A DNA stretch of 64,000 nucleotides, from NCBI RefSeq assembly GCF_028368995.1, contig NZ_JAQNDL010000003.1:1568001-1632000 (forward strand), read 5' to 3'. Position 1 is the stretch's first letter, and every line of letters begins with the position of its first letter. The position numbers and the translations under genes are program-made. Below are positions 25,162 to 51,302 of the stretch, piece by piece. The DNA is from Nannocystis bainbridge. GTDB taxonomy: Bacteria; Myxococcota_A; Polyangia; Nannocystales; Nannocystaceae. The notes beneath the pieces are model-generated. The model saw only the letters and a program-made list of their open reading frames with translations. It ran no database searches and was not told the origin of the DNA.

Positions 25162-25186
25162 CTTACTTGCTGGCGACTAGCAAGTA
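25162..25186. promoter_or_regulatory. Palindromic operator, copy 1
   Basis: TACTTGCT-ggcgact-AGCAAGTA; the 24-mer 25162-25185 is identical to 51254-51277. Confidence 0.85.
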
Positions 25187-25211
25187 TACAGATGGCGCCA
25201 TGGAGCGTCAA
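25183..25211 (-). promoter_or_regulatory. Sigma70-like promoter of the roxA operon
   Basis: Minus strand TTGACG (25211-25206), N17, TATACT (25188-25183); the -10 box overlaps the operator. Confidence 0.75.
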
Positions 25212-25358
25212 GCGGGCTCCATGGCGCGGTTTCGCCCGCCGAGAGTTCGCCGAGAGGTGCCCCGGTCGAGGCGTCGTGCGACCCCGCCTGAGGCCGCGAA
25301 TGCGGTGAATCGCCGGCTTCCACCCGGCCCGCGCGCGCGGCTATGATCGCGTGAATCG

Positions 25359-27041
25359 ATGGGCTTGCTCGACCCGATCCCGCCGCCGTACGACCCCCTC
25401 GAGTGGGCCACTCGCCCCCTGCCGGACAAGAGCCGCATGGTGTGTCGCTCGTGGGCCCTCCAGGGCTACGGGACCCCGGTCGCGGTCTACTTCGTCTACC
25501 TGCTCAAGGTCGGCCTCTACGTCGGCGGCTGGATCTTCTTCTGCGGCTTTTCGCCCGGGCTCGGCGACCCCGCGGCGATCGGGCAATGGTGGCTCGATCC
25601 GCTCGCGTTCCAGAAGGCGATCGTGTGGAGCCTGCTGTTCGAGGTGCTCGGCCTCGGCTGCGGCAGCGGGCCGCTGACGGGCCGTTACTTCCCCCCGATC
25701 GGCGGCTTCCTCCACTTCTTGATGCCCGGCACCACCAAGCTGCCGCTGCTGCGCGGCCTGCCGCTGGTCGGCGGTCCGAAGCGCGGCGCGATCGACGTCG
25801 CCCTCTACGCGGTGCTGCTGATCAGCCTGGTGCGCGCGCTGGTGGCCCCGCAGCTCGACGCATCCCTGTTGCTGCCCTTGGTGGTGCTGGTGCCGCTGTG
25901 CGGCCTGCTCGACAAGACCGTGTTCCTGGCCGCGCGCGCCGAGCACTACTGGGTGATGATCGTCGTGTTCGCGTTCGCCAGCCCGTGGCTCGCCGGGGCC
26001 AAGGCGGTGCAGGCGGCGCTGTGGTTCTGGGCCGGGGTGTCCAAGCTCAATCATCACTTCCCGGCCGTGGTGTGCGTGATGACCAGCAACTCGCCGGTGA
26101 CCCGCTTCGCCTGGCTGCGCCGCCTGGTCTATCGCAGCTACCCCGACGACCTGCGGCCGTCGACGCTGGCGACGGTGATGGCCCACCTCGGCACCCTGCT
26201 CGAGCTCGCGGTGCCGATCGTGCTGCTGCTCGGCGACGGCGGCACGGTCACCACGGTGGGCCTGGTGCTGATGGTGATGCTGCACGGCTTCATCCTCAGC
26301 ACGGTGCCGATGGGCGTGCCGATCGAGTGGAACGTGGTCGTGCTGTACGGCGGGTTCTTCCTGTTCGGCGCCCACGCCGAGGTCAGCCTCGCGGGCCTCG
26401 CCAGCACGCCGCTGCTGGCCGCGTTCGTGGCCCTGTTCGCGGTGGTGCTGCCGCTGGTGGGCAACCTGGCCCCGCACCGGCTGTCGTTCCTGCTGTCGAT
26501 GCGCTACTACGCCGGCAACTGGCCCTATTCGGTGTGGCTGTTCCGCGGCGACAGCTACAAAAAGCTGGAGCGCCTGCGCAAGTCGTCGAAGTGGCTGTAC
26601 GACCAGCTCGACGTGTTCTACGAGCGCAAGGTCTCGGTCGGCCTGGTCGGCAAGGTGATCGCGTTTCGTCTGATGCACCTGGCCGGGCGGGCGCTGTGTC
26701 GCTTGGTGCCGCGCGCGGTCGACGACCCGAACAAGTACGAATGGGTCGACGGCGAGCTGGTCGCCGGCCTCGCGCTCGGCTGGAACTTCGGCGACGGCCA
26801 CCTGCACGACGAGCAGCTGATCGGCGCCCTGCAGGCCCAGTGCGGCTTCGAGCCGGGCGAGCTGCGCTGCATCCTGGTCGAGTCGCAGCCGCTGCACCGC
26901 CAGACCATGATGTGGCGAATCCACGACGCCGCCACCGGCGAGCTCGACCGCGGCGAGATCGGCGTCGCCGAGCTGCGGCAGCTGCAGCCGTGGTCGTTCG
27001 ACGACGCTGCCGACAATCGCGGCAACGCGACGATCGGGTGA
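25359..27041 (+). CDS. DUF3556-family integral membrane protein
   Basis: Multiple TM helices; GCGSGPLTGRY, LDKTVFLAARAEHY, SKLNHHFP, MRYYAGNW, GWNFGDGHLH. Confidence 0.8.
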   Translation: MGLLDPIPPPYDPLEWATRPLPDKSRMVCRSWALQGYGTPVAVYFVYLLKVGLYVGGWIFFCGFSPGLGDPAAIGQWWLDPLAFQKAIVWSLLFEVLGLGCGSGPLTGRYFPPIGGFLHFLMPGTTKLPLLRGLPLVGGPKRGAIDVALYAVLLISLVRALVAPQLDASLLLPLVVLVPLCGLLDKTVFLAARAEHYWVMIVVFAFASPWLAGAKAVQAALWFWAGVSKLNHHFPAVVCVMTSNSPVTRFAWLRRLVYRSYPDDLRPSTLATVMAHLGTLLELAVPIVLLLGDGGTVTTVGLVLMVMLHGFILSTVPMGVPIEWNVVVLYGGFFLFGAHAEVSLAGLASTPLLAAFVALFAVVLPLVGNLAPHRLSFLLSMRYYAGNWPYSVWLFRGDSYKKLERLRKSSKWLYDQLDVFYERKVSVGLVGKVIAFRLMHLAGRALCRLVPRAVDDPNKYEWVDGELVAGLALGWNFGDGHLHDEQLIGALQAQCGFEPGELRCILVESQPLHRQTMMWRIHDAATGELDRGEIGVAELRQLQPWSFDDAADNRGNATIG

Positions 27042-27256
27042 TTCACGCCACCTCTGGTCCGGAGGCACCTCGGGGGATCGGGCGCAGACGGGCCTGGGCA
27101 CGGCCCTGAGCGGGCATTGCGCGCGAACCGGCCCGCGGGCCGCATCGTGACTCACGTTCGGTCCGCTGAGCCGATCGCGCCGCCGCAGGCGGGCCGCGCA
27201 TCGATCGCCCGTCGCGCCGGGTCGAACCGCGCGGGCTCCAGTAGTACGCTCGCCGC

Positions 27257-28549
27257 GTGCCCGGGCACGAGGCAGGCAACATCATCGCGTCCCGCTACCG
27301 CCTCGAGCGCGTATTGGCGCAGGGCGGCATGGGCAGCATTTGGGTCGCCCGCCACCTCCAGCTCGATGTCGAGGTCGCGCTCAAATTCATGGCCCCCGAG
27401 TACGCCGATTCGCCGGAGCTGCGGGCCCGCTTCGAGCGCGAGGCCAAGGCCGCGGCGATGCTGAAGAGCCCGCACGCGGTCCAGGTCCACGACTACGGCA
27501 TCGAGGCTGGCGCGCCGTACATCGTGATGGAGCTGCTCGAGGGCGAGGACCTGGCGGCCCGGCTCGCGCGCGAGCGGCGGCTGCCCCTGGCGGCGACCCG
27601 GCGGATCGTCGAGGACGTGGGCAAGGCGCTGCGGCGCGCGCACGAGATCGGCCTCATCCACCGCGACATGAAGCCGGCCAACATCTTCCTCGCCCGTCAG
27701 GCCGGCGACGAGGTGATCAAGATCGTCGATTTCGGGATCGCCAAGTCGACCCGCGCCCTCGACGGCGAACAGACCCAGACCAACGCCGTGCTCGGCTCAC
27801 CGCGCTACATGAGCCCGGAGCAGGTCCGCAGCAGCGCCCATGTCGATCACCGCACCGATCTGTGGTCGCTCGGCGTGATCGCGTTTCGCTGCCTCACCGG
27901 TCGCCTGCCGTTCCCCGACGGCGAGGTCGGCGAGGTGTTCGTGGCGATCTGCACTGCCCCCATTCCCCGCGCCTCGGACGTCGCGCCGGACCTCGGCCCC
28001 GAGATCGATCGCTTCTTCGAGCGCGCCCTCAGCCGCGCCGTCGATCAGCGGTTCCAGAGCGCGACCGAGCTGGTCGAGGCGTTCGCGGCCCTGCCGGGCG
28101 CCCGCGATGCGGCGCTGCAGCCGGCCGCCGCCAGCCGCTCCGACGTCGCGGAGCGCGAGGGCGCCAGCGAATTCCTGCCGACCCTGCCCGCGCGCGGGAC
28201 CCTGGCGCACGAGCACGAGCGTGCTCCCGGCCGGCGCCGCGCGGCGCTGGTCGTGGCCGGCGGCGTGACGGCGGTGGGGCTGGCGATCGCGCTGTACTGG
28301 GGGCTGTCGCCGGCGCGGCCCGAGCCGCAGGCCGCCACGAGCCCCATATCTGACGACATTCCCGCTGCGCCTCCGGCGCCCGAGCCGACGCCGACGCCCG
28401 TCGAATCGACGCAGCCGCCCGCCCCGCCGGTCTCGCAGCCGCCCGCGCCCGAGCCCGCGGCCAAGCCGGGGCAGTCGCCCCATAAACCGCGGCGCAACGG
28501 CTCTCACCCGCGACCGAATCGAAGCGATGATCTCCTCAAACACATGTGA
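27257..28549 (+). CDS. Membrane-anchored Ser/Thr protein kinase
   Basis: AQGGMG, VALK, HRDMKPAN, DFG, YMSPEQ, TM helix, Pro-rich tail. Confidence 0.92.
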   Translation: MPGHEAGNIIASRYRLERVLAQGGMGSIWVARHLQLDVEVALKFMAPEYADSPELRARFEREAKAAAMLKSPHAVQVHDYGIEAGAPYIVMELLEGEDLAARLARERRLPLAATRRIVEDVGKALRRAHEIGLIHRDMKPANIFLARQAGDEVIKIVDFGIAKSTRALDGEQTQTNAVLGSPRYMSPEQVRSSAHVDHRTDLWSLGVIAFRCLTGRLPFPDGEVGEVFVAICTAPIPRASDVAPDLGPEIDRFFERALSRAVDQRFQSATELVEAFAALPGARDAALQPAAASRSDVAEREGASEFLPTLPARGTLAHEHERAPGRRRAALVVAGGVTAVGLAIALYWGLSPARPEPQAATSPISDDIPAAPPAPEPTPTPVESTQPPAPPVSQPPAPEPAAKPGQSPHKPRRNGSHPRPNRSDDLLKHM

Positions 28550-29537: not shown

Positions 29538-29546
29538 TAAAATAAC

Positions 29547-30467: not shown

Positions 30468-30483
30468 TGGTGGATTTTAAGAA

Positions 30484-30511
30484 GGACATGTCCGAATGGA
30501 CATGTCTCGGT
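30484..30511. repeat. 14-bp-period CATG array, 2 units
   Basis: GGACATGTCCGAAT / GGACATGTCTCGGT between convergent stop codons. Confidence 0.55.
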
Positions 30512-31950
30512 CAGTCCCAGGCGAACGACCACAGGGCGACGATCGCCAGGCCGAGCGAGAGCAGGCACAGGAGCACGGGCACGATCAGGCCGGAGCGCCG
30601 CGCCGGACTCGTGGGCGCCTGAAGCTCCGCCGCAGGCGCGACGACGGGTCTCGCGGTCGCGCTGCGCACCGCCGCCGGAGGGCGAGCGTCTCGCACCATC
30701 AACACCGTGCGGTCGTCGTCCTCGCTGCGCACCACGGGGCGCTCGACCTTCGCGCTGCCCCTATTGAGCTCCGCGCGCTCGATGTTCGCTCTGCCACCAT
30801 TTTCGCCTCCTCCGATCGGCGCTGGCGACAGGACCAGCGTCCCCTCCGCGGCTTGCGGCCGGTCCGGCAGGACCTCGGTGCGATCGACGATCGTCTCGTC
30901 GACGATCGCCTCGTTCACCGGCGCCTTTTCAAAGATCTCGGTGCCCTCGCCGACGGTCGCATCGACCGACTCACTCGCCAGCGTCGTCACTCGCGGCGTC
31001 ACCGGCCTGGCTTCACCCGTCGAGGGCAGGCTGACGATCGTGGTGCGATCCTCGAGGCTCGCCGGCGCCTCGCCCCGCTGCGTCGGCTCGTCCTCGGGCG
31101 CCTGCGCGACGGCAGGCGCGGCGTGAGTCCGCGGCGTCAGCCCCGGCGAGCGGCGAATCAGCGCCAGGTGGCGCGTCAGCTCGGCCACGTCCGCGAAGCG
31201 ATGCGACGGCTGCTGCGCCATCGCGCGGGCGATGAGCGCCTCGACCTGCGCCGGCAGCGGGATCGCCGGTGCCAGCTCGACCGCGCGCGGGGCCAGGGCC
31301 GCGCGCGCGGCCTGGAACGTCGTCGGGCCAGTGAATGGGTGCACGCCGGTCGTCAGCTCGAACAGCAGCAGCGCGAGCGTGTACACGTCGGAGCGCGCAT
31401 CGCCGGGCCCGCCCGTGAGCTGCTCCGGCGCGCGGTACTCGGCGACCATGCCTCCTTCGTCGGCGGGCGCCGGCTGCACGCCGAGCTCCGCGATCGCGCA
31501 GTCGAGCACGCGGACCTGCTCGTCGGGCGTGACCCGCACGTTGCCCGGCTTGAGCGCGCGATGCGGCGAGCCGAGCGCGATCAAGCCCTCGGCGCACGCG
31601 TGCACGATCGCCAGCGCGCGCTGCCACGGCAGCGCACCGGCGCGACGGAGCAGCGCCCCGAGGTCCTCCCCCGCCACCAGCTCGCCGGCCAGGAATGGCG
31701 GGCTCGCGGTCGTGGCGACGGCGATTCGTGGCACCACGATCGCGGGGTGCTCGGTCGCCGCCTGGGTCCGTAGCGCGCTCGCCAGCCGCGTCAATCGATC
31801 GACCGCGATCGGCGCGACATCGAGGACCTTGAGCGCGACCTCGCGGCGGGTCTGCAGGTCCCAGGCGACGAACACCTCGCCGAGCCCGCCGCTCCCCAGC
31901 CGCGCGCGCAGCTCGAACCGCTCCGCCAGCGTGTCACCGGTCGCGCTCAT
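30511..31950 (-). CDS. Ser/Thr kinase-like protein, probable pseudokinase, with C-terminal TM helix
   Basis: GSGGLG and VALK present, but HRALKPGN in place of HRD and DCA in place of DFG. Confidence 0.8.
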   Translation of the reverse strand: MSATGDTLAERFELRARLGSGGLGEVFVAWDLQTRREVALKVLDVAPIAVDRLTRLASALRTQAATEHPAIVVPRIAVATTASPPFLAGELVAGEDLGALLRRAGALPWQRALAIVHACAEGLIALGSPHRALKPGNVRVTPDEQVRVLDCAIAELGVQPAPADEGGMVAEYRAPEQLTGGPGDARSDVYTLALLLFELTTGVHPFTGPTTFQAARAALAPRAVELAPAIPLPAQVEALIARAMAQQPSHRFADVAELTRHLALIRRSPGLTPRTHAAPAVAQAPEDEPTQRGEAPASLEDRTTIVSLPSTGEARPVTPRVTTLASESVDATVGEGTEIFEKAPVNEAIVDETIVDRTEVLPDRPQAAEGTLVLSPAPIGGGENGGRANIERAELNRGSAKVERPVVRSEDDDRTVLMVRDARPPAAVRSATARPVVAPAAELQAPTSPARRSGLIVPVLLCLLSLGLAIVALWSFAWD

Positions 31951-32696
31951 GCTCCACCTGCCGCCACGTCGTCGAGGTTGTCGCGCATGACTTCGAGGAA
32001 GAGCTGGACGGCGCGGGGACTATCGGCGCCGACCTCGATCTCGAGCCGCTCCATGTCCGGCGGCACCTCGAGCATCACCGACAGATCCGCGCGCTCCAGC
32101 GTGTGCAGGCCCGGCTGCGACGGCATCACCGGCGTCAGCCCGAGCCGCGCGCAGATCGCCGCGGCCGCGTCGATGCGCCGCGGGTCCACCGGGTCGAACA
32201 CCTCCTCCCGCCGGAACGAGCGCCTGCCCGCCGCGGCGAACAGGAACGCGTGCCGCTGCAGCATGCCCGTCCACGAGCGCGCGACGACGTGGGCGCGGGC
32301 TTCGCGGAAGGCGTCCGGATCACCTTCGTCCTCGAAGCTCACGACGGGCGGGTCGTCCGGATCGCCGCGCTGTAGATCGAGGAACCAGTCCTCGCGGATG
32401 TCGCGGCCGATGCCGAGGTCGATGCCGACCTTGAGAAAGCGGTCTGTCGGGTACGACGGCGGCGTGGAAAGCAGGTGCGGCCACAGCTCGGCGGCGCGGC
32501 AGTCGGCCACCGGCAGCGCCGAGAAGCTGCCGGTCGAGCCGCCCATCGCCCGCAGGAACTCGACGTACGCGCGCGGCAGCGGCCGCGGACTCAGCTCGGC
32601 GAGCCTCTCGATGTCTCCGGACGTGGCGCCGCGGACCTGGGCGCGCAGGTCGGGCACGCGGGCGACGAGGAAGGCGAAGATCGCGGGAAACGACAT
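31947..32696 (-). CDS. SMI1/KNR4 (SUKH)-like immunity protein
   Basis: GATSGDIERLAELSPRPLPRAYVEFLRAMG; lies directly downstream of the toxin gene. Confidence 0.75.
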   Translation of the reverse strand: MSFPAIFAFLVARVPDLRAQVRGATSGDIERLAELSPRPLPRAYVEFLRAMGGSTGSFSALPVADCRAAELWPHLLSTPPSYPTDRFLKVGIDLGIGRDIREDWFLDLQRGDPDDPPVVSFEDEGDPDAFREARAHVVARSWTGMLQRHAFLFAAAGRRSFRREEVFDPVDPRRIDAAAAICARLGLTPVMPSQPGLHTLERADLSVMLEVPPDMERLEIEVGADSPRAVQLFLEVMRDNLDDVAAGGA

Positions 32697-32743
32697 GAGG
32701 GCACCTGTTCAGGGGGCGGCGTCGATCGTGCTCGCCCTCCAGC

Positions 32744-34357
32744 TCATGGAGTCGAGGACGAACCCGCCGTGTTCGCTGCGGTCGCCGGGTCCGGTTGGCT
32801 TTCGGCTTGCGTGTCGGACGTGCTCGCCGGCGGTTGTGTCTGCTTCCCTTTGGGGCACGTGCGCTTTTGATGGAGGCAGAGGGTCATCGGTACCATGGAC
32901 TGGCACGAGAGGCAGGAGGGCACGGTCGTCGCGTCCGTGAAGGCCTGCTCGCGCCCGAGCGGGTCGCTCCGCCCGAACGACAGGTGGAGCTGCGCGACCC
33001 GCCACGGGTCCCAGGCGTCGTCGTTATAGTGACGGTAGCGGAGTCGAAGCTCATGCGGCGGGACCGGCGCGAAGAACATCTCGGTCATGGCCTTGGGGAT
33101 GTGCCCGTCTTTGTGCGTCACCAGCTTCGAGGCGGCGCACTTTCCCGGGGGGTTGTAAAAGGCCTGACGGCGGTCGTTCCGGCGTTGCGCATCGTTCCAG
33201 CGGCGCACGAAGGTCCATCGGTTCAGAGCGCCGATCCGCGGGTTCGCGTCGGCGTAAGTCTTGATTGTCGGTACTTCGACGCACGGCGTCCATCCCTGCT
33301 GCTCGACGACCGCCTTGAAGCCGGGCAGCGTCTCTCCCGACATCGCGGCGAAGATCTGGTTGCACTTGCAGATCATGACCCCGACCATGTACCCGCTGTT
33401 TTCGTTCTTGTGCACGGCCGCCTTGTTGTTCGCCACGCCGATGTTGCGGATCTTTTCGATGGCGGCCTTGTGCTTGGCGTCGAGCTTCTTTCGCTCTTCC
33501 TTCTGCTTCTTCTCCTCCGCCTTCCGCGCCTTCCTTTGCGCCTGTAGCTGCGCTTTCGTGGGCGCCGCCGAACCGTCCGACCGCCCCTCCTGGTTCGCTC
33601 CTGCCGCTGGTGGATCGGCGAACGGGTCGGCCTGCGACGAACTGCTCCCGCCCGGTGCTGCTCCCGGCGGATCGACGAACGGATCGGCCTGCGACGAACC
33701 ACTCGCGGCCTTCTGCCTGGCGTCGAACTCGTCCTTCTCTTTTTTGGCCTGCTCCTCCTCGGCCTTGGCTTGATCGAGCGCCGTCTTCACTCCCGGCTGT
33801 CTCTCCATGTATTCGTCGTAGGCCCGCCGAAGCGCGACGATGAGTTGCTGCACGTATTGCTGGCTGTCCGCGGTCTCGTGGATCCGGTGGCTGGCCGGGC
33901 CGCGGAAGCAGATCGGGCACGGCCAGAAAGAGTCGTCGCCGTAGGCCCAGCCGGTGCCGCCGGCCTGCACGAACGCGGTGTTGAAGGTGTTGCCGTTGTG
34001 GCCGACCGCGTCGCTGAAGCGCGCCACGCCCTTGCCCTCGACGCGCACGTCGAGGCTGGTCGACTGCCAGCGCAGCTTGCCGCGGATCCTGCTCGAGATG
34101 ACGCCACCACCGGCGATGCCGGGCTCGTCGCCAGTGCTGGTGACGATGAAGGACGCGGCGGTGGCGATCGCCCCGCCGCCGATGCGCGTGCGCCGGGCCC
34201 CCTGCGCGAGGTCGGCGGTGCGCGCCGCGTTGACGTAGGGCACCGGCGCCGGCCCGGCCGGCGTCGGCGTCTTGCAAACGTCGGGCGGACCGGCGACGTC
34301 GACGAGGCCGTCGCGCTGATGCACGATCGTGCGACCATTGGCGAAGGTGCGTGTCAT
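32744..34357 (-). CDS. DUF4150 (PAAR-like) polymorphic toxin with a Cys-rich C-terminal domain
   Basis: ATG 34357 (ATGA overlap); PDVCKTP, PVPYVN, STGDEPG, DVRVEGKGVAR; coiled-coil linker; C-terminal GKCAASKL ... PSCLSC. Confidence 0.85.
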   Translation of the reverse strand: MTRTFANGRTIVHQRDGLVDVAGPPDVCKTPTPAGPAPVPYVNAARTADLAQGARRTRIGGGAIATAASFIVTSTGDEPGIAGGGVISSRIRGKLRWQSTSLDVRVEGKGVARFSDAVGHNGNTFNTAFVQAGGTGWAYGDDSFWPCPICFRGPASHRIHETADSQQYVQQLIVALRRAYDEYMERQPGVKTALDQAKAEEEQAKKEKDEFDARQKAASGSSQADPFVDPPGAAPGGSSSSQADPFADPPAAGANQEGRSDGSAAPTKAQLQAQRKARKAEEKKQKEERKKLDAKHKAAIEKIRNIGVANNKAAVHKNENSGYMVGVMICKCNQIFAAMSGETLPGFKAVVEQQGWTPCVEVPTIKTYADANPRIGALNRWTFVRRWNDAQRRNDRRQAFYNPPGKCAASKLVTHKDGHIPKAMTEMFFAPVPPHELRLRYRHYNDDAWDPWRVAQLHLSFGRSDPLGREQAFTDATTVPSCLSCQSMVPMTLCLHQKRTCPKGKQTQPPASTSDTQAESQPDPATAANTAGSSSTP

Positions 34358-35379
34358 CGGCTCGCGCCTCCTCGCGCGGGAGTGACTTCGAAGATGCAGG
34401 CGCCGAGCGCCCCGTCGTCGTCGCTGCCGTACAGCAGCGCGCGACCGCGGCCGCTTCGCAGGTGGTGCAGCGCCAGCGCGAGGGCCAGCGCCGGCGCGGC
34501 GGCCCCGGTGTCGCCGAAGCTCTCGCACGCCCGCAGGTGCACCAGCGGCTCGGGCATCAGCGGCGCCTGACGCAGCGCAGCGTAGCTGAAGGCCCGCGCC
34601 TCGGCGACCTCGCCGGTCTGACTGCTGGCGACGCAGCGCGGCCGCTCGTCGCCGACGCCGGGCGCGCGCGCGAGGCGAGTGAACACGTCGGCGAGCCCGT
34701 CGGCCAGCGCCCGCACGCGCCCGCCGTCATCGTTCATATGTCCCAAAGTACATGCGATGATTCGCCCCAGCGGCGCACCCTCGACCTTCGCGCCGCCGGG
34801 ACCCCGCGCGAGCAGCAGCGCCACCGCGGCCTCGCCGGGGACAATGCCGTCGCGATGCGAGGCCAGCACGCGGTCGCGCAGCCCGAGCTGCTCCAGCGTC
34901 GCAGCGTCACACAGGCTGTCGGCCGCGAGCACCAGCGCGAGCGGCTCGGCGTCGGCCGCAGTAAGTCGCTCGAGCAGCTGGAACAGCCCGGCGCGACCGC
35001 CCCGCATCACCTCGCGCAGCTCGAGCGGCGTGGGCACCTCGGCCTGCAGCGCCGCCACGATCTCCGCCTCGTCGACGGGCGCCCCGCTCCGCTGCGGCGC
35101 CGCCAAATACAGCGGCAGCGGCGTCACCGGCAACCCGGCCAGACAGTCGCGCACGGCCCAGCCGGCCAGGGCCGCGATCCGCCCGCTGCGCCCGCATGTT
35201 GCTTCGAGCCGCGACGACCGCGAGGCCCGGATCGGCTCACCGCTGCGATCCTCGAGCTCGGTCTCGGCGAAGCGCACCACGCCCGCGCGCACGGCCGCCA
35301 GGGTCGTCGGCGCCGACAGCCCGAGCGGCGTGCCCATGCCGACGCGCAGGACCGCCAGCCCGCCGTCGCCCGCGTTCAC
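34354..35379 (-). CDS. Beta-ketoacyl synthase-like (thiolase-fold) T6SS accessory protein
   Basis: GTG 35379 overlapping the DUF2169 stop; GMGTPLGL, LAADSL, VPGEAAVALLL, FGDTGAA. Confidence 0.8.
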   Translation of the reverse strand: MNAGDGGLAVLRVGMGTPLGLSAPTTLAAVRAGVVRFAETELEDRSGEPIRASRSSRLEATCGRSGRIAALAGWAVRDCLAGLPVTPLPLYLAAPQRSGAPVDEAEIVAALQAEVPTPLELREVMRGGRAGLFQLLERLTAADAEPLALVLAADSLCDAATLEQLGLRDRVLASHRDGIVPGEAAVALLLARGPGGAKVEGAPLGRIIACTLGHMNDDGGRVRALADGLADVFTRLARAPGVGDERPRCVASSQTGEVAEARAFSYAALRQAPLMPEPLVHLRACESFGDTGAAAPALALALALHHLRSGRGRALLYGSDDDGALGACIFEVTPARGGASR

Positions 35380-42541: not shown

Positions 42542-42589
42542 GCGGCCAGTCAGCCACGTTCGCCCCCGCCGCGTCAACCGTGCCTCGCC

Positions 42590-44791
42590 TCATGGACTCG
42601 CATCACCGATTCGCAACTCCATCAGATGTTCGTCCCGCCAGCGGGCGACCACTTTGACTCCCCCCTCCTTCCACGTCACCGACGAAGCTCCGGTCTTCTC
42701 CGGATGTTTCACGGTTGCGGGGTGCCCGACAGCCTGCGACAGAATCCTGTCCGCTGGCCACGACGGTGAGTGCAGCGCCCGCCGCCCGACCGGGCCGACG
42801 GCGTAGATTCCGTCACAGTTGCCCGCTGCATCGAAACTGAAGAAGACCTCGGATCCCTCGAGCAAGGCGACCGAGAGCTTCTTGCTTCGCGAATGCAGCG
42901 GGGGGAACAGCGCGCGCAAGGTCGCCTCGTCGGCACCGATCGCAGCAACCTTGGCGTGTTCGTCGTTCACCCAGGTCTTCGCTTCCTTCGCCAGCGCCTG
43001 CAGCTCCTCGTCGTCCTTCAAGACAGCAAGCGTCTGTTCGGCCAGGGTTCCGACCTGCCCGAGCGCTTGAAGTCGCTCACCGGAGGCTTCTGCACCCAGC
43101 TCGCGGCGCACGAGCACATCGACGATCTTCCCTTTTGCCCGCTCGACTGCGGCGGCCCTCGCGGTGCTCCCCTGCGCAGCGTTGGCAGCCCTGGCGATCG
43201 TCAAACGACAGGGCTCGTCGGTGCACTGGCTGCTCCGCGAATCAATCGCGCGTGCCCGCTCCTCCGCGAGCTCTGGATCGCCGCGCCAGCTCTCGGCAAA
43301 CCACCGATCGATCGCGCCTTCGGCGTCCGTCGCATGACCATCCGCCACGAGCCTGCGGATCTCCGTCAGGCGCTCGGCTCGCGCGATCGTGGCCGCCGTC
43401 GCGGAGCGTTCCCTCCCGTGAGCAGCGATCTGATCCAGTCGCTTGAGCCGCTCCTCCCCCGCGGCCTCGTTCGCCTCGGCCAAAAGGATGGTGTCCTCGG
43501 CCTCGACGAAGGTCTGGTCGCTCGTCTCGCGCAGCGCCGCCAGCACCACGCGGGCCCGTCGTGTATCGCCGACGGCGAGCGCCTGATCGATCTCTTCGGC
43601 GGAGGGGCGAGCCACCACCCCGACGATGGCCATTGCCAGCAACGCGGCCGCCCAGAGCCCGAGGCACACCTGCTCGACTCGCTTCAGCCCCTTGAATCCC
43701 TTGCCGGTGCCCCATATTCGGAGGACTCCGCCTATCCATAATACCGCCAGCACCGTCGCCCCGAGCCATAACAGGCTCGTCGCACCGGCGGCATCTTTGA
43801 AGTACTCCGAGCGCCCGGTCGTGGAGCTCGGCATTGCGCTGCATACACTGACGAAGAGGGCGAGGATCGGCCACACGAAGAGCCGGCGACGAATCGGTCG
43901 CTTGGCTTCGGGCGTGCTGGCACCGACGAGCTGGTGGCCGGAGAGTACGAGCACGCCCGAGGTGCCGCACATGGCGTAAGATACGTCTCGTCGCGGCACC
44001 CGCAGCTGGATATAGTGCTGCTGCGCGACCCGCTCGAGGCGCGGGTCGACCCCCGCCGTCGCCCCCTGGACCGCCGAACGGCCATCCAGCTCCAGATCCG
44101 CGAGCGGCAAGGGGCCGGGAGCTTTCCGGTCGACGGCCACCGTGAACGCGGCGACGTCGTTCTCCCTCAGCAATCGAGGTTCGGTGAGCTGGCGATGAGC
44201 CAACGCGACGGGGGACTGAGGCTGGACCACGACGCTCACGCGTCTGGTCTCCACGAACGTGAGCCACGCCCGCTGATGGCCCGAGCCGTTGCAAGTCGTG
44301 CACGGAACGTTGCCGCGTCCCGCACAATTTCCACAACTGGCCTGCCCCGTTCCCTTGCACTGCTTGCACTTGTTGAGGCGGTTCGTGCTCGGGTTGCGGA
44401 ACCGCCCGGCGCCGCCACAGTTCGAACAGGAGACGCTCGCGCGGCCGCTGCACACCGAACAAGAGGCGGTGCCGGAGGCTCGACAGATCATGCAGCGCAC
44501 CACATGGGTCGTGCGTGCCTTCAAATCCTGAGCCGGGTAGGCGAACGGATCGAGCCGGGCGGGATCGACGCTCGGCTGCGTCACACCACGTTCGCTCGTC
44601 GTCGTGCGCTCTTCCCGAAGATCTCGGCGAATGATCTCGGTCAGCACCCGGTGGAGCACCTCGTCTTTGTTCTCGACCCCCGAGATCAACGATGCGAGCG
44701 CTCGCGGAGCGCCGAACACACTCCGAGCCCAAAGGTTGGCCGCTTCTGCGACATCGGGAGTGACAGGGGGGCTCGCGGGTCGGTCTACCAT
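42590..44791 (-). CDS. Membrane protein with a DnaJ-type CxxCxGxG zinc-finger array, three TM helices and a helical C-terminal region
   Basis: Six CxxC units between CMIC and CTTCNGSG; ATG overlaps the hxsA stop. Confidence 0.75.
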   Translation of the reverse strand: MVDRPASPPVTPDVAEAANLWARSVFGAPRALASLISGVENKDEVLHRVLTEIIRRDLREERTTTSERGVTQPSVDPARLDPFAYPAQDLKARTTHVVRCMICRASGTASCSVCSGRASVSCSNCGGAGRFRNPSTNRLNKCKQCKGTGQASCGNCAGRGNVPCTTCNGSGHQRAWLTFVETRRVSVVVQPQSPVALAHRQLTEPRLLRENDVAAFTVAVDRKAPGPLPLADLELDGRSAVQGATAGVDPRLERVAQQHYIQLRVPRRDVSYAMCGTSGVLVLSGHQLVGASTPEAKRPIRRRLFVWPILALFVSVCSAMPSSTTGRSEYFKDAAGATSLLWLGATVLAVLWIGGVLRIWGTGKGFKGLKRVEQVCLGLWAAALLAMAIVGVVARPSAEEIDQALAVGDTRRARVVLAALRETSDQTFVEAEDTILLAEANEAAGEERLKRLDQIAAHGRERSATAATIARAERLTEIRRLVADGHATDAEGAIDRWFAESWRGDPELAEERARAIDSRSSQCTDEPCRLTIARAANAAQGSTARAAAVERAKGKIVDVLVRRELGAEASGERLQALGQVGTLAEQTLAVLKDDEELQALAKEAKTWVNDEHAKVAAIGADEATLRALFPPLHSRSKKLSVALLEGSEVFFSFDAAGNCDGIYAVGPVGRRALHSPSWPADRILSQAVGHPATVKHPEKTGASSVTWKEGGVKVVARWRDEHLMELRIGDASP

Positions 44792-45438
44792 TCGATCTTC
44801 ACCGTGCCGGTCTGGCCATCGAGGATCTCGATCGTGACCTCATGATCACCGAGAAACCGGTTCTGAACGCGTACCGTATGAGAGCCGGGTTTCAGCACGT
44901 GCTTGCCCGTCGCGTCAGTCCCCAGCTCCTTGCCATCAACGAAGATCTTTCCGCCCGGGAAGGCCTCGAACGACACGTTTGCCGGCTTGGGCGGCTTCGG
45001 CTTGACGGGCTTCGGCGCCGGCTCCGGCGGCGGATGGACGGCCTTGCTCCCTCCGTGGCCGCTGCTGCTGCTGCTGCTTCCGCTGCTGCTGCCGCCGCTG
45101 CTGCTGCTGCTGCTGCTGCCGCCGCCCCCACCACCGCCGTAGCCGGAGGAGGGAGGCATCGCCGACATGTGCGAGGCGTGCGATCGATGGTACGAGCCGG
45201 ACGAGTGGCTGCTGTGGGAACGATGCGACGAATGAGACCGATGCGATCGATGTGCCAGGAGCGGCAGCTCGACGTCGGAGGGCGCCAGGAGCAGCGCCGG
45301 CGCGAGCTCTTCCTCCGGATCTTCCGTCCGCTTGCCGATCCGCGCCGCAGCGTCGGGGACGAGCAGGCCAGTCCCGGCTGCAGCCCCGAGCACGGCGAGA
45401 AGCGCGGCACCCAACGTCTTCAGTTTCCCCGATGCCAT
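44785..45438 (-). CDS. hxsA: His-Xaa-Ser repeat precursor protein with signal peptide, Gly/Ser linker and C-terminal PEGA-like domain
   Basis: HRSHRSHSSHRSHSSHSSGSYHRSHASHMS (nine HxS triplets); GKIFVDGKELGT...LKPGSHTVRV. Confidence 0.85.
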   Translation of the reverse strand: MASGKLKTLGAALLAVLGAAAGTGLLVPDAAARIGKRTEDPEEELAPALLLAPSDVELPLLAHRSHRSHSSHRSHSSHSSGSYHRSHASHMSAMPPSSGYGGGGGGGSSSSSSSGGSSSGSSSSSSGHGGSKAVHPPPEPAPKPVKPKPPKPANVSFEAFPGGKIFVDGKELGTDATGKHVLKPGSHTVRVQNRFLGDHEVTIEILDGQTGTVKIEW

Positions 45439-45441
45439 GCC

Positions 45442-46638
45442 TCAATCCTCCCTCTGTGCGACCATCGGTCCGCTCTGCTCCGCGATTGCGAACGGAGCGA
45501 TCCCGCGGCTCCGCCGCACCACCGATGAAGCGAAGAACCCTCCGCACCGGGCTCGCGCCTCACATCGGGCGCACTCTTCGAGATATAGGTTCTTCCAGTC
45601 CGAGATCGACGCTCGTGCGAATCGGTGCAAGACCGGGTCCAGGACGCAGAGCTGATGGTTGTAAATGGACACGTGCATCCGCGCCCTGTCGAGGATCTCT
45701 ACCGCCTCGGCCAGCTCGCGCTGGTAATCCAGCGGATCGATCCATATTGCGTCGAGGTTGGAGCGAGCAAACCCCATGAGCTCGAGGCCCATCAGCGCGA
45801 CGTGGTCGACGAACAGGAGGTTCCTCGCCACGAAACGGGCGAAGGCCGGGAGCCTCTCGACCGTGTCGCGCTGGACGACGAAGCGTAGCTCGACGCGCAC
45901 CCGGTGCCGCTTGAGGTTCAAGATCCCTCGGATCGTCTGATCGAACGCGCCTCGGGCCTGGACCACGAAGTCGTGGACCTCGGGTAGATCGCCGTACAGC
46001 GGGATCCCCAGCATCAGATCTGGATGGCCGACCTTCGCCAACGCGAGGGCGAACTTCTCGTCCGCGAAGGCACGTCCGTTCGAGAGGATGTGGAGCGCCG
46101 TTCGTGGCAAGAACCGACGAAATCGATCCACCAGGTCCACCAGACGACTCCCGAGGAGGCCAGGCTCACCGCCGGTGATCCCGATCTCGGGCGTCTCCGG
46201 CGACATCATCGGGATGATCTCGAACAGCTCGTCGACCAGCCAGCCGTCGTCGCGCTCCTTCGGCGGTTGCGAGCACATGACGCAGTAGTTGTCGCATCGC
46301 TCGGTGACGAGCATGGAGTTGAAGGCCGAAGAGCGCCGGTACAGCACCGTCAACCCACTACGCTCGGGATGAATCCGGATGATGTCGCCGTCACCGAGGA
46401 AAGGAAATTCGGCGCCGATGAAGAAGACATTCGGCTGCCGGGCAACGCCTGTCTCGCTCCGCGTCAAGTAGGCTCGAAAACCGCCGGGGAGCTCGCATGG
46501 ACCCTCGACGAGCAAGATTTCACGAGAACGTGCGGCTGCAGGGAGCGCCGGGTTGGTGCATACGCGCCCGAGGAACGGCTCGGGCGACCGCTCGGGCGAC
46601 AGAGCGCGAAGGCTTCGTCCGTGGAGCTTGATCAGCAT
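45442..46638 (-). CDS. hxsC: His-Xaa-Ser system radical SAM maturase
   Basis: LVTERCDNYCVMCSQPP, GITGGEP, ILSNGR, SIYNHQLC, SISDWKN, CGGFF. Confidence 0.9.
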   Translation of the reverse strand: MLIKLHGRSLRALSPERSPEPFLGRVCTNPALPAAARSREILLVEGPCELPGGFRAYLTRSETGVARQPNVFFIGAEFPFLGDGDIIRIHPERSGLTVLYRRSSAFNSMLVTERCDNYCVMCSQPPKERDDGWLVDELFEIIPMMSPETPEIGITGGEPGLLGSRLVDLVDRFRRFLPRTALHILSNGRAFADEKFALALAKVGHPDLMLGIPLYGDLPEVHDFVVQARGAFDQTIRGILNLKRHRVRVELRFVVQRDTVERLPAFARFVARNLLFVDHVALMGLELMGFARSNLDAIWIDPLDYQRELAEAVEILDRARMHVSIYNHQLCVLDPVLHRFARASISDWKNLYLEECARCEARARCGGFFASSVVRRSRGIAPFAIAEQSGPMVAQRED

Positions 46639-46642
46639 GGGT

Positions 46643-48103
46643 TCAGATCCAGCTCTGCAGGACTCGGCGGGCGGACGCGTCGTCCTCCATGAGGGCGATC
46701 AGGTGGCGGAGCACGGCCATCTGCTTTTTACAGAAGGACGAGAACGCCTTGTGGCCGATCACGTCTCCCTGCGTCGCCTTGTGAAAGACGGGGTCAGACC
46801 CGCAGTAGGGCATGAAGGCACAGTCGCTGCACATCGGCAGGCCCTCGAGCATCGAATCCTTCAACAGGTCGACGAGGGTATCGCTCGTCATGACCTCCTC
46901 GAAGGAGTCCTCGTCGAGATGCCCGAGTCTGAAGGTGTGATCGCCCATCTCCGCGAGCATTCTCCCCTCGTCGGAGGCATAGATCGCCCCATCATAGTTG
47001 TAGATGATGCCCGCGATCCCGAGCCCCGCCGGCGATTGCAAGTCGACGTAGCCGTTGCCGACAGGCGCGAACATCTTCTGCAGCAGGATGGCCGCGAATT
47101 CCTCGCGCATGGGATAGCCGCTGAGGTTGAGGTCGATGATATGCCGGAGCCCTTCGACGTAGAACTTCACCCAGTCGTCCACGTCGTAGCGGCGGACCAG
47201 ACTCGTGCGCACCGCGAAACCGTAAGGGCTCAGGCTGCGCAGGAATATCGAGTGAAAGCCCTGCTTGACGTACTCGTCGACGATCTCCCGCACCCGCGGC
47301 AGGCTCCCGGGCGAGGTCGTCATCAGGGCTGCTACCGCGTCAGGCCCGAGCGCTTCTCGGATGCGCTGGATCCCGTCGACCGCGGCGCGGTAGCTGCTAC
47401 CTCGCGGCAAAGCCCGGCGCTCGTCGTGCAGATCCGCGGGACCGTCGAGGGACGTCGAGAAGTAGATCCGGTGCCCCTTGCAGAAATCCAGGATCTCGTC
47501 GTTCAAGCGGGTCAGGTTCGAGGCGATGACGAACACGAGGTCGCGTCCGTGCTCCCGATTGAGGGACTCGGCCCGAAGTACGACGTGGCGGATCAAGTCG
47601 AAGTTGAGCAGGGGCTCTCCGCCTTGAAACTCGATCTTGATCGCGGGCGAGGGGCTGCGGAACACGAACTCGACTGCCCGGTCGGCGTGAGCCTGGCTCA
47701 TGTCGAAGCGGCTCTTCTCCTCCATCTGGCGCGAGACCTGGCAGTAGCTGCAGGTGTGGTCGCAGCGCAGCGTGACCACGAACATGTGCAGCGCCGTGAA
47801 GTCGGCGATCCGATCCGCCCGGCTTCGGTACTTGAGCGCGAGCAGATCGAGCGCGACCCTGGATTCGCCGTCGAACAGGAAGTGTCGGCTCTTGAGGTCG
47901 GCGTACAGCGGTGTGCCCGGCTGCAGTTCGTGCCGGAGCAGCGCCTGCAGCGCGGGCCGCTCCAGGACGACGTACTCCCCCACGTCGTTGGTGATCACGT
48001 AACGCCTGTCGTCGAGCCGAGAAAATCTGGCCGGCAGCAGCCGATAGGGGCCGCTCGGCGCGAAGGCGGAACGATCGCGGAAAGTGTCGGCGAGCTGGTT
48101 CAT
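46643..48103 (-). CDS. hxsB: His-Xaa-Ser system radical SAM/SPASM maturase
   Basis: ATG 48103 (TGATG overlap); LHMFVVTLRCDHTCSYCQVSR, KIEFQGGEPLLNF, YVDLQSPAG, YASDEGRMLAE, CSDCAFMPYCGSDP. Confidence 0.92.
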   Translation of the reverse strand: MNQLADTFRDRSAFAPSGPYRLLPARFSRLDDRRYVITNDVGEYVVLERPALQALLRHELQPGTPLYADLKSRHFLFDGESRVALDLLALKYRSRADRIADFTALHMFVVTLRCDHTCSYCQVSRQMEEKSRFDMSQAHADRAVEFVFRSPSPAIKIEFQGGEPLLNFDLIRHVVLRAESLNREHGRDLVFVIASNLTRLNDEILDFCKGHRIYFSTSLDGPADLHDERRALPRGSSYRAAVDGIQRIREALGPDAVAALMTTSPGSLPRVREIVDEYVKQGFHSIFLRSLSPYGFAVRTSLVRRYDVDDWVKFYVEGLRHIIDLNLSGYPMREEFAAILLQKMFAPVGNGYVDLQSPAGLGIAGIIYNYDGAIYASDEGRMLAEMGDHTFRLGHLDEDSFEEVMTSDTLVDLLKDSMLEGLPMCSDCAFMPYCGSDPVFHKATQGDVIGHKAFSSFCKKQMAVLRHLIALMEDDASARRVLQSWI

Positions 48104-48414
48104 CAGCGCTGCAGCAGGTCGGTGCGCGAGAACGCGTGCGCCAGGATCAGGGACCGCAACGCGTCCGTCTCCTCGTGAAGCTGAGCGCGAAGCTCCTCGT
48201 CGAGCAACTCTTGGTAGAAGACTCGGACGGCCTCCGCAGCGGCGGTATCGCTCGTCCGCGGCGGAAACGTGAAGCGCAGGATCGGCTCGTCCGAGTCCGA
48301 TGGTTCGAGGCGGACCGTGCACCGCTCCGCTACCCGATAGGCGGCCTTCTTGATCGCCGCTGGCCTGTATGTCTGTACGTCGATCCTCGTGTCGAACCTG
48401 TCATCGGCCGTCAT
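48103..48414 (-). CDS. hxsD: His-Xaa-Ser system protein
   Basis: IDVQTYRPAAIKKAAY ... FYQELLDEELRAQLHEETDALRSLILAHAFS; first gene of the operon. Confidence 0.85.
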   Translation of the reverse strand: MTADDRFDTRIDVQTYRPAAIKKAAYRVAERCTVRLEPSDSDEPILRFTFPPRTSDTAAAEAVRVFYQELLDEELRAQLHEETDALRSLILAHAFSRTDLLQR

Positions 48415-48694
48415 GCCCGCTCCCAATACATGCGTCCCGCGACGCACTGGCTATGGCCCGAGGATAGAGGTTTCTTCGCCGATCTTCCAGCGCGCGCCAG
48501 GCGAGCATAGGTGGCACACAAACGCTGTTATCGAAGACAGTGGAAGTACGCTTCTCGGGTCGGATGAGCGTCAGCCTCGCCGGCTGGGTCTTCATCTGCG
48601 GAGATGATGCGGGTGGACACGTATGACACTTCCACCCGCCGGCTCGCGCATGGGCTCCCGCCTCGTGAGGCGCGAGCCCGCCGCTGCTGCCGTC

Positions 48695-50290
48695 TCACAG
48701 CGTCTTCAGGTACTCGATCACCGCCCGTCGCTCCTGCGCATCGAGGTGGTCACCGAACGGGTGCCCCGTGTTCCAGTGGCCCGTGATGGTCGTATCGTAC
48801 ACGTGCTTGCGTTCGTCGGCCGGCGCCCCGTCCTGGCCGTACGGCAGCTCGACCCATGGCCAGCCGACCGCCTCGGGGTCGTAGTTCGTGCTGTCGTAGT
48901 CTTCGCGGCGCCACCATTTCGGCCGGGCCTTGCTGTTCAGCACCAGCTCGATCGTCGGCACCGACGCATTGTGAAGGTACGGCGCGCTCGCCCAGATGCC
49001 GTCGAGCGGCGGCGCCACGTAGCCGACGAACGGGTCGCCGGTGGTGAGCTGGCCGACGTCGCCGTACCACGATGAATTGAACCAATCGGCGAACGGGCGC
49101 GCGTCGGCCTCGAAGGCCAGCAGCGGGTCGGTGCCGATCGTCGCCAGCGGCAGCAACATGTTCGGGTACGTCTCGAGCGCTGGATCGTCCGAATACGTGC
49201 CGTGGCAGCACGAGCAGTCGCGCACGAAGATCTCCTGGCCCTGGGCGGCCAGCTCCGCGTCGATCGCAAACGGGTACTTCGGCGCCTCGACCGACTCGAT
49301 GAACGCGCGGATGTTGTTGAAGTAGGAGAAGATGCCCTCCGCCTCCTCGACCGAATCGGTGCACAGGGCGCTGGCGTAGATCATCGTCGCCCGGTGGTCG
49401 CCGCGCGACATCCCGTTCCAGAACAGCCCGTGCTTCTTCTTGGTGTGCCACCACGGCGGCGTGTCGACCGGCAAGATGACCTCGGGCACCACCGTGTTCG
49501 GCTCGTCGAGCCACTCGAGCGTGTTGGCGTCATGGCGCGTCGAGAGCACCGCCGCCAGCGAGTCCGCCGGGTTGGTGCCGACCACCAGCATGCGCGTGTA
49601 GTCGCCGACGGCCTGGTAGCGCTGGGCCATGCGCGTCAGCTCCTCGAGCCCCGGGATCGGGATGCCGGGGATCGGGATCTCGGCCAGAAATCCGCCGATC
49701 TGCTCGGTGTAATCGGCGTCGGCCTTGCCGAGGCCGATGACCAGCTCGCCGTTGAATTTGCCGGCGTGACACTCGAGGCAATTGAGCGAGACGATCTCGG
49801 CGCCGCTGCTCTTCGAGGTGTGCACGGTCCAGTTGTAGGGCACCTGGGCGTTCTTGCCGGTGCGGCCGGGGAGCGACTCGCCCTCGCCGAACGACCCGAG
49901 GAGCGGGGCGGCCAGCGGAAACAAAACGAAGGGGATCCCGCACGAGACGTAGCCCTCGTTGAGGAGGGCGTGATAGCCCGCGGCGGCGTCGCCCTGGACC
50001 TGCTCGCTGCCGGGGATCGGGTAGCCCATAGCGCAGGCGGCCGGCGGCGGGTCGTCGCCGTCGGTGGTCGCCTCGCCGTGCGACGAGCCGGTCGTCGGCG
50101 GGTCGACCCCCGAATCACTGGCCTCGGTCGGGCCCGGGCCGGCGGTGTCCGCCGTCGTGCTCGCGCTGCCACCATTCGTGCCGTCGCTGCCGTCGCCGTC
50201 GCTGCCCTGGGCCGGCGGGTCGCCGTCGCCGCAGGCGGCCAGGGCCAGACATGTCGCTGCAATCCACGTTCTCTGCGTCATCGATGCCAT
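48695..50290 (-). CDS. RoxA-like di-haem c-type cytochrome lipoprotein
   Basis: ATG 50290 with GGAGGAGG RBS; lipobox LAAC; CLECH, CSCCH, DTPPWW, IGTDP, GYVAPPLDGIWASAPYLHNASVP, NTGH, IEYLKTL. Confidence 0.8.
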   Translation of the reverse strand: MASMTQRTWIAATCLALAACGDGDPPAQGSDGDGSDGTNGGSASTTADTAGPGPTEASDSGVDPPTTGSSHGEATTDGDDPPPAACAMGYPIPGSEQVQGDAAAGYHALLNEGYVSCGIPFVLFPLAAPLLGSFGEGESLPGRTGKNAQVPYNWTVHTSKSSGAEIVSLNCLECHAGKFNGELVIGLGKADADYTEQIGGFLAEIPIPGIPIPGLEELTRMAQRYQAVGDYTRMLVVGTNPADSLAAVLSTRHDANTLEWLDEPNTVVPEVILPVDTPPWWHTKKKHGLFWNGMSRGDHRATMIYASALCTDSVEEAEGIFSYFNNIRAFIESVEAPKYPFAIDAELAAQGQEIFVRDCSCCHGTYSDDPALETYPNMLLPLATIGTDPLLAFEADARPFADWFNSSWYGDVGQLTTGDPFVGYVAPPLDGIWASAPYLHNASVPTIELVLNSKARPKWWRREDYDSTNYDPEAVGWPWVELPYGQDGAPADERKHVYDTTITGHWNTGHPFGDHLDAQERRAVIEYLKTL

Positions 50291-50570
50291 CGCGTACTCC
50301 TCCTCCTGGACCGTCGCGCCGCCGCTCGCAGCGACGGCGGGCCCACCCGCTCGCCGGCGCTCCGCTGCGTACCTCGGTCCGGACCTCTGCGCCCCCGCGC
50401 CACGTCGCGCTCCCACGCCGCCACGGCGGGCGCCGGGCGCACGGGCCCGATTGCATGGAGCTGACGAGAACACTGTACATGGGCGGACTATCGTCATTCC
50501 GGCGCGCCGGAATGGGCATTGGGGGGCTCATGCCCCGAGCGCGTCGCCCGGGCGGGCGACGCCGCGAATG

Positions 50571-51194
50571 TCAGGCCTGGGCGGCTCGCAGGGCGCGGGA
50601 GATGTGCGCCCGCATCAGCGCGTGCAGCTCCTTGACGGGGATGTCGGGGTTGACGAGCCAGCGGTAGAGGAGGCCGTCGACGACGCTGGCGAACAGCTCG
50701 GCAGCGAGCCCCGGCGCGACGCCGGCCGCGATCTCGCCGTGGGCCTGGCCCTCCTCGATCCACCGGGTGAGGGCGCGGACGTGGGCCTTGTTCAGCTTGG
50801 CGACGTTGGCCCGGTATTCGGCGCTCGGATCGATGCTGGCGTAGCGCAGCAGGTACATCGCCCGCAGCCCCTGCGGCTCGTCGACGATGAATTTGTAGAG
50901 CGCGTCGGTGACCCGCTGCAGCGCAGCGACGCCGGTGGCGCGACCGACCACCCCCTGCACCCGTCGCAGCCACTCGGCGGCGATGCTGTCGTGCACGTGG
51001 GCCAGGAGCCCCGCCTTCGAGCCGAAGCGATGCGTGACCAGCCCGCGCGAATAACCCGAGCGCTCGCCGATGCCGGCGAGCGTGGTGCCGGCGATGCCTC
51101 GCTCCACCAGCAGGCTCACGGCGGCCTCCGTCATCAATTGCTCGGACATCGCAGTGCGCTCCTCCTGGGTCCGCCGTCTTGCCTCGGAAATCAT
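50571..51194 (-). CDS. TetR/AcrR family transcriptional regulator
   Basis: RRTQEERT...LLVERGIAGTTLAGIGERSGYSRGLVTHRFGSKAGLL. Confidence 0.92.
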   Translation of the reverse strand: MISEARRRTQEERTAMSEQLMTEAAVSLLVERGIAGTTLAGIGERSGYSRGLVTHRFGSKAGLLAHVHDSIAAEWLRRVQGVVGRATGVAALQRVTDALYKFIVDEPQGLRAMYLLRYASIDPSAEYRANVAKLNKAHVRALTRWIEEGQAHGEIAAGVAPGLAAELFASVVDGLLYRWLVNPDIPVKELHALMRAHISRALRAAQA

Positions 51195-51253
51195 CGAGCG
51201 TTTTTTCTCTTGTCAAAGGCGGGACTTGTCAAAGCCTTCGTCGCTCATCTCAC

Positions 51254-51302
51254 CTTACTTGCTGGCGACTAGCAAGTTATAAAACAGCGCGCTCCGCGTC
51301 AA
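51254..51302 (-). promoter_or_regulatory. Palindromic operator copy 2 with overlapping sigma70-like promoter of tetR
   Basis: CTTACTTGCTGGCGACTAGCAAGT at 51254-51277; minus strand TTGACG (51302-51297) followed by TATAAC/TAACTT at 15/17-nt spacing. Confidence 0.8.

Follow-up and report, generated by a model that had tools for sequence, protein, structure and literature searches.

The 64,000-nucleotide stretch of the Nannocystis bainbridge genome analysed here (contig NZ_JAQNDL010000003.1, positions 1,568,001 to 1,632,000; hereafter the window) contains two copies of a 24-base sequence, CTTACTTGCTGGCGACTAGCAAGT, at 25162-25185 and 51254-51277. The first copy (site 1) lies about 180 bases ahead of roxA, the gene of a rubber dioxygenase, and the second (site 2) sits 62 bases ahead of a gene for a TetR-family regulator. 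The core of the repeated sequence is a 21-bp dyad, in which eight of the nine arm bases are complementary around a three-base centre.

25165..25185, no strand: candidate operator copy 1, ACTTGCTGG-CGA-CTAGCAAGT; 24-bp identity from 25162; position weight matrix (PWM) score 41.0
51257..51277, no strand: candidate operator copy 2, 21-bp dyad; 24-bp identity from 51254; PWM score 41.9
22964..24988, minus strand: roxA, rubber dioxygenase A, 674 residues (NF050033, 1291.6 bits against a cut-off of 1000; PDB 4B2N, E 1e-292)
50571..51194, minus strand: TetR-family regulator, 207 residues, recognition helix GYSRGLVTHRF (PF00440 and PF13977 over cut-off)

The original prediction had placed the 24-mer and its dyad at both positions, and the sequence and a genome-wide scan bear this out. 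The two copies are the only exact ones in the genome of 11,048,555 bases, and the perfect dyad ACTTGCT-N7-AGCAAGT also occurs at two places only; a fifth-order Markov model gives an expectation of 6e-10 further 24-mers and 0.004 perfect dyads in the genome. Using the PWM, which was built from 27 homologous sites, the next-best place in the genome scores 15.6. Across the phylum, the pattern was found in 3 of 401 genomes, namely this one, one with a TetR ortholog of 42% identity beside the site, and one treated as chance, and the motif is thus not a widespread repeat. With two copies only and no Rfam match in 24800-52000, neither a dispersed repeat nor a structured RNA is indicated.

Both copies overlap a predicted promoter on the minus strand.

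25183..25211, minus strand: predicted sigma-70-type promoter of the roxA operon, TTGACG-17-TATACT, 10 of 12 matches; the -10 box overlaps an operator arm
51274..51302, minus strand: predicted tetR promoter, TTGACG-17-TAACTT, read from the sequence

The original prediction of TTGACG promoters over both copies holds in that -35 and -10 boxes with a spacing of 17 bases can be read at each. The site 1 promoter is the best of three promoter-like matches of a promoter scanner across 14000-27300, but the site 2 promoter is under the scanner threshold, and there were no matches in 48200-51800. At site 2 the TTGACG lies 25 bases upstream of the dyad. Among 34 homologous sites, 21 show a TTGAC that begins 23-27 bases upstream, several of these being from close kin, so that the left arm would usually provide the end of the -10 box.

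The shared TTGACG, the overlap with the -10 box and the 24 identical bases could also be explained by a duplicated promoter or a core promoter element, rather than by a protein operator. However, the -35/-10 spacers of the two copies are unrelated in sequence, and the identity ends abruptly at the dyad, with not one further base matching on either side. The dyad is conserved from myxobacteria to gammaproteobacteria while its centre bases vary, and it tracks one recognition helix, which together make a promoter origin very improbable. Based on the position over the predicted -10 box, a protein bound at the site is expected to repress and, given binding, we regard repression as nearly certain. 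Activation by TetR (50571-51194) would have a parallel in a dual-role TetR-type protein cited in the reference list of PMC7413915, but it is scarcely credible here, as the operator lies, at a constant distance, over the predicted -10 box and the start region, and a protein bound there would obstruct RNA polymerase.

The helix-turn-helix (HTH) of TetR (50571-51194) scores 46 bits with PF00440 against a cut-off of 24. The predicted model consists of nine helices (pLDDT 91.7), and all matches listed in a fold search with it are TetR-type regulators. The motif pattern is present in 9 of 61 related genomes, and these are exactly the nine that encode a TetR ortholog at E<1e-90, whereas none of the other 52 contains it. 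A reversed control pattern matched two of these relatives, once each. A second set of 31 TetR homolog loci overlaps the 61 genomes, and the counts are not additive. In 24 of these loci the homolog is an ortholog of 42-97% identity, from myxobacteria and gammaproteobacteria (metagenome-assembled genomes, MAGs, of Nevskia, Steroidobacter and Hydrocarboniphaga). A site scoring at least 30 lies within 300 bp upstream of tetR in 18 of the 24. In three more the site is found 3.2-3.4 kb upstream, where it precedes the cytochrome gene at the head of the tetR run, and the last three have a 17-bp variant, a degenerate site and no site, respectively. The recognition helix GYSRGL is kept in all 24 orthologs. 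At the seven loci with homologs of 27-35% identity, no upstream site reaches a score of 10, and the helix is altered in all six that were read. Two plasmid homologs found afterwards, from Sphingobium and Alteromonas (33-36%), keep GYSRGL; their related sites lie between genes of acyl-CoA catabolism and score 21-31.

That helix and motif go together in this way is the strongest evidence for TetR (50571-51194) as the likely binder, and on comparative grounds binding of the 21-bp palindrome by this protein is very likely. The link between TetR and operator made in the original prediction thus gains from the rarity of the site, its exact co-occurrence with the regulator, its position before roxA in all five congeners and its overlap with the -10 box, while binding itself we infer.

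The half-sites are built from tandem four-base units, with an outer CTTG in 51 of 62 and an inner CTTG, CTGG, TTGG or CTAG in 56 of 62; the site at locus L075 is a single 17-bp CTTG-N7-CAAG unit. The arrangement as two CTTG-N7-CAAG palindromes offset by 4 bp suggests that two dimers may bind side by side at the 21-bp site. In QacR the two dimers have an offset of 4 bp. QacR, CgmR and CprB place two dimers on sites of 22-32 bp, compared with the 21 bp with nested repeats here, and PMC4150764 describes sites of 15-17 bp for single-dimer members of the family and 22-32 bp for members that bind as a dimer of dimers.

Two further sequence elements were observed around tetR. Two CTTTGACAA direct repeats at 51210-51234 in the tetR leader are kept in congeners and may serve as additional -35 boxes or as another binding site. 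A perfect 20-bp palindrome, CATTCCGG-CGCG-CCGGAATG, lies at 50495-50514 between tetR and the following cytochrome gene; it is single in the genome, and similar arms are found in several congeners.

The original prediction treated the two sites as distant loci; independent loci are not borne out by the congeners. TetR (50571-51194) is 95-97% identical to proteins of other Nannocystis, a genus of which N. exedens is listed among rox carriers (PMC10731047), and all five congeners share one gene order, sod - operator - tetR - cytochrome - DUF3556 - operator - roxA - acyl-CoA genes. The operators are 5.0, 5.9, 5.9, 12.3 and 13.9 kb apart in those genomes and 26 kb apart here, where the interval is filled by kinase, VgrG/PAAR and radical SAM genes. 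Judged by this gene order, the two sites belong to a single locus that insertions have drawn apart. The DUF3556 membrane protein (25359-27041) is encoded divergently from roxA, in the same place as in the five congeners. Within the variable insertion, a plus-strand vgrG gene has minus-strand DUF2169, PAAR-like and SMI1/KNR4 genes as neighbours (31947-38842), an unexpected orientation, and two radical SAM genes accompany unannotated open reading frames (ORFs) at 42590-48322.

Behind the two sites, on the same strand as roxA and tetR, the following genes are found.

19401..22953, minus strand: three acyl-CoA dehydrogenase genes (21790-22953, 20561-21793, 19401-20564; Pfam)
18313..19404, minus strand: Zn alcohol dehydrogenase (Pfam)
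17843..18316, minus strand: GXWXG/DUF4334 protein (Pfam)
16273..17829, minus strand: acyl-CoA synthetase (Pfam)
14700..16148, minus strand: aldehyde dehydrogenase (Pfam)
48695..50290, minus strand: small di-haem c-type cytochrome, 531 residues, lipoprotein-like N-terminus (by eye), two CxxCH motifs

Aligned to 4B2N, the roxA product contains CSGCH, CASCH, PFLHNGSVP, FWDG and MAFG, so that the haem motifs, the MauG motif and the equivalents of W302 and F317 are present; the features compared are those given for RoxA in PMC10837239 (CSxCH/CxxCH haem motifs, MauG motif, W302, F317). By orthology, the window RoxA would cleave polyisoprene to ODTD. The genes at 14700-19404 overlap or are separated by short gaps and may be co-transcribed with roxA. 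Orthologs of the acyl-CoA dehydrogenases lie directly behind the operator in genomes without roxA at that place. The catabolic cluster is broken at 12469-14610 by ORFs without Pfam matches and with atypical codon GC, and the length of this gap varies among congeners.

The cytochrome gene starts 280 bases after tetR. The labels roxA and tetR of the original prediction stand, but the cytochrome, which it had called a second RoxA-like protein, scores below the NCBIfam cut-offs for RoxA (94/1000), RoxB (120/900), RoxC (157/900) and di-haem peroxidase NF040606 (135/150), and its resemblance amounts to one small Pfam domain. In the sequence alignment it has a tyrosine at the position of RoxA F317, and the F317Y exchange in RoxA leaves less than 1% activity (PMC6797691). 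By these scores it is a distant Rox relative and not a member of RoxA, RoxB or RoxC. Two paralogs of 53-55% identity elsewhere in this genome are both without operator, and orthologs in other genomes bear an operator of their own.

Across genomes (G and L numbers denote genomes and loci), the genes found most constantly behind the operator are acyl-CoA dehydrogenases and fadA-fadB. Directly behind it, roxA is found in this genome, the five congeners and L072, and in Chondromyces apiculatus, Minicystis rosea and G607 it is part of a gene run headed by the operator. Genes of the roxB type follow the operator directly in Minicystis (7 Mb from tetR), Paraliomyxa, G027, G036 and G608; four of these five are over the RoxB cut-off, the G036 gene being outside the scoring. 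A full roxA or roxB is present in eight of the nine TetR genomes versus none of the other 52 relatives. The operator also adjoins three cytochrome paralogs in G036 and MpaB/Lcp-domain proteins in G036 and G027. By this distribution, the regulon has the beta-oxidation operon as its core, and roxA, roxB, Lcp-domain and lipase genes recur as members. A rubber-degradation regulon, as originally predicted, is therefore partly right, with rox genes repeatedly tied to the site, but too narrow, since acyl-CoA genes are the most constant members, several genomes with TetR and operator lack rox, and several roxA genes lack the site. Among the congeners, all five that have the site have it upstream of roxA.

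Several other gene clusters were noted near operator copies. MpaB/Lcp catalytic-domain genes of myxobacterial MAGs (L164:5855-6766 and L171:215-1084) have an operator directly upstream. A cluster of wax ester synthase/DGAT, esterase and SDR genes adjoins operator copies in L163 (G007) and L173 (Paraliomyxa) and may store breakdown products. In L066 (G007), roxA, fadB, acdX and sod each appear in two pieces, which may reflect assembly frameshifts. A Nevskia MAG (L111, L114, L116-L127) contains many Rox-like genes, three of them in tandem; the one that was scored is closest to RoxC, under its cut-off.

A second, different palindrome is located elsewhere in the window.

10162..10180, no strand: second palindrome, TTTTACAAC-GA-ATTAAAAA, between divergent fadA and acyl-CoA dehydrogenase genes
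6714..8900, minus strand: fadB (Pfam)
8923..10134, minus strand: fadA (Pfam)
10247..11452, plus strand: acyl-CoA dehydrogenase (Pfam)
11449..12465, plus strand: phosphotransferase (Pfam)
5409..6017, plus strand: second TetR, candidate binder of the second palindrome; 52-59% identity to Rhodococcus/Pseudonocardia plasmid proteins

The only other exact TTTTACAAC-NN-ATTAAAAA in the genome (1.4e-5 expected) is situated before roxB on contig C5, at G000:C5:448799-448817, and a weaker copy is seen 70 bases further upstream. This roxB (G000:C5:446421-448697; NF050034, 1037.1 against a cut-off of 900) has no copy of the 21-bp operator. The RoxA and RoxB of Steroidobacter cummioxidans 35Y and Rhizobacter gummiphilus NS21 are among the closest known counterparts, the window roxA being over the cut-off of the RoxA model and the C5 gene over that of the RoxB model. 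The C5 RoxB differs from the Steroidobacter and Rhizobacter RoxB by a lipoprotein-like N-terminal extension, found likewise in the RoxB proteins of L172:6419-8698, L173 and L171; a review assigns such an extension mainly to RoxC.

The second palindrome occurs in 6 of the 61 genomes, this one and the five congeners, which are close kin, and the same six encode TetR (5409-6017). Plasmid homologs of this protein have a related palindrome upstream in four of seven cases, and one small lipid cluster in G007 is flanked by the two motifs. Because the second palindrome lies at both roxB and fadAB and co-occurs with TetR (5409-6017), these genes are probably under the second TetR. In this genus they would have passed to the second palindrome, so that genes under the first TetR in other myxobacteria probably sit under a second, actinobacteria-like TetR here. 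TetR (5409-6017), or another regulator, might also be proposed to bind the 21-bp site, given that it is encoded in the same cluster in six of six genomes of the group. Yet G011, G027 and G036, with one, five and eight of the 21-bp sites, gave no match to this protein, and it tracks a different palindrome, making it a very improbable binder.

Taken together, the 21-bp palindrome is likely the operator of TetR (50571-51194), which would sit over the predicted -10 boxes and so repress tetR and the roxA-beta-oxidation operon. A product of lipid breakdown, probably the acid or CoA ester of an oligo-isoprenoid, would release it. In such a scheme, basal RoxA would cleave cis-polyisoprene extracellularly, yielding ODTD. 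Two enzymes of the operon, the aldehyde dehydrogenase and the CoA ligase, would convert ODTD to the acid and CoA ester, and these would lift repression by TetR, giving product induction with autoregulation. ODTD is the RoxA product and is made outside the cell (PMC10837239, PMC5979037), and latA2 of Rhizobacter, a roxA ortholog, shows 7-fold induction on rubber (PMC6460296). From genome to genome, this switch would head a beta-oxidation core and recruit roxA, roxB, small di-haem cytochromes, Lcp-domain proteins and lipases. The inducer we infer from the pathway, since RoxA yields ODTD and the operon holds enzymes for the acid and the CoA ester. Several arginines of the ligand domain are invariant or nearly so in 55 aligned proteins, which would suit an anionic ligand. 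An isoprenoid-derived inducer is slightly favoured over an ordinary acyl-CoA.

A number of observations weigh against this interpretation. The related genomes are not independent, the PWM was trained on many of the 24 ortholog loci, and the binding, expression and ligand steps are predicted. The fold search singles out no ligand class, with all matches at or below 25% identity. Genes for lipases, an acyl-CoA synthetase and a carboxyltransferase are also preceded by the operator, as would suit a wider lipid signal; secreted-looking lipases, CoA ligases and an aldehyde dehydrogenase are among the other neighbours of its copies. No site was found at roxA in the Steroidobacter-type genomes G065 and G610, although TetR and operator are present elsewhere there, nor at the metagenome roxA loci L132 and L134, at the Nevskia RoxC-like genes or at the roxB of G439, which has its own divergent TetR-like gene. 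G011 has TetR and operator, and no full-length rox gene was found in it. Seven of ten further genomes reached via homolog MAG loci gave no full rox match, one of the seven holding a cut roxA in L072.

These points bear on the possibility that TetR (50571-51194), though it binds the site, acts as a general repressor of the FadR kind and senses ordinary long-chain acyl-CoA, with roxA a late recruit that is co-induced with fatty-acid breakdown. The Bacillus subtilis and B. halodurans FadR proteins (PDB 3WHB, 3WHC, 5GP9) share the TetR fold with TM-scores of 0.78-0.80, the B. subtilis protein (0.79-0.80) being among the best listed; FadR represses fatty-acid degradation genes and was solved with stearoyl-CoA, according to the entry title. 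Beta-oxidation genes are the most constant neighbours of the operator, lipase genes bear it, and the distant homologs have related sites among acyl-CoA genes, the stretches retrieved there carrying no rox annotation. However, FadR and TetR (50571-51194) are only 15-18% identical, and the Bacillus FadR model NF053878 is not among the seven NCBIfam matches at E 1e-5. There are just two sites in the 11-Mb genome, so no global regulon is seen, and rox genes are tied to the operator repeatedly and in varied arrangements, with the split of rox genes between TetR genomes and the other relatives also speaking against a general repressor. We therefore consider a FadR-like role unlikely, and favour the switch with an isoprenoid-linked signal.

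Among the closest described systems are LcpR of Gordonia polyisoprenivorans VH2 (ACTI_59620) and LcpRB of Streptomyces coelicolor A3(2) (ACTI_69510), which are also TetR-family proteins with palindromes upstream of rubber oxygenase genes; they bind upstream of actinobacterial lcp genes that are induced on rubber (PMC7413915, PMC8235351). Their lcp targets encode b-type haem proteins unrelated to rox, whereas c-type di-haem rox and beta-oxidation genes of Gram-negative bacteria are concerned here. The lcp palindromes given in PMC7413915 are unlike this operator when compared by eye, and the LcpRB type has two TetR domains in about 400 residues, in contrast to the single HTH in 207 residues of TetR (50571-51194).

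No regulator or operator for rox genes was found in the open literature searched, including the portions available of PMC10837239, PMC6460296, PMC6311187, PMC5979037 and PMC10731047, subscription papers being outside the scope of the search; the original prediction had likewise known of none for myxobacterial roxA. The type of mechanism is ordinary, but the regulon, the motif and the split between two TetRs appear to be new. The operator travels with its TetR across distant bacteria and is therefore likely to be the point of binding for a hitherto undescribed switch that controls how Gram-negative bacteria break down rubber and lipids. Well conserved, it probably belongs to a TetR group not described before, whose regulon serves the catabolism of isoprenoids and lipids and contains rubber oxygenases. 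More tentatively, and with considerable doubt, the operator might mark a Gram-negative polyprenyl-oxidation regulon, in which one TetR serves RoxA, RoxB, small di-haem lipoproteins, Lcp-domain proteins, lipases and branched-chain beta-oxidation. The everyday substrate would then be polyprenyl lipids (plant or prey polyprenols, quinone tails) and not only latex, and in this genus the exo-cutter RoxA and the endo-cutter RoxB would be split between two TetRs that sense different products in a two-step induction cascade.

The TetR-operator pair makes the switching of Gram-negative rubber oxygenases, and the identity of the enzymes that burn the C15 product, directly testable with one protein and a 21-bp oligonucleotide. 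As a tag, the operator picks candidate pathway genes in other genomes, and it ties an uncharacterised family of di-haem lipoproteins and the Lcp-domain proteins to the same task. The second palindrome would provide a clear example of how a regulon is rewired. Should the ligand be an oligo-isoprenoid, the pair would be a ready reporter for screening rubber-degrading enzymes.

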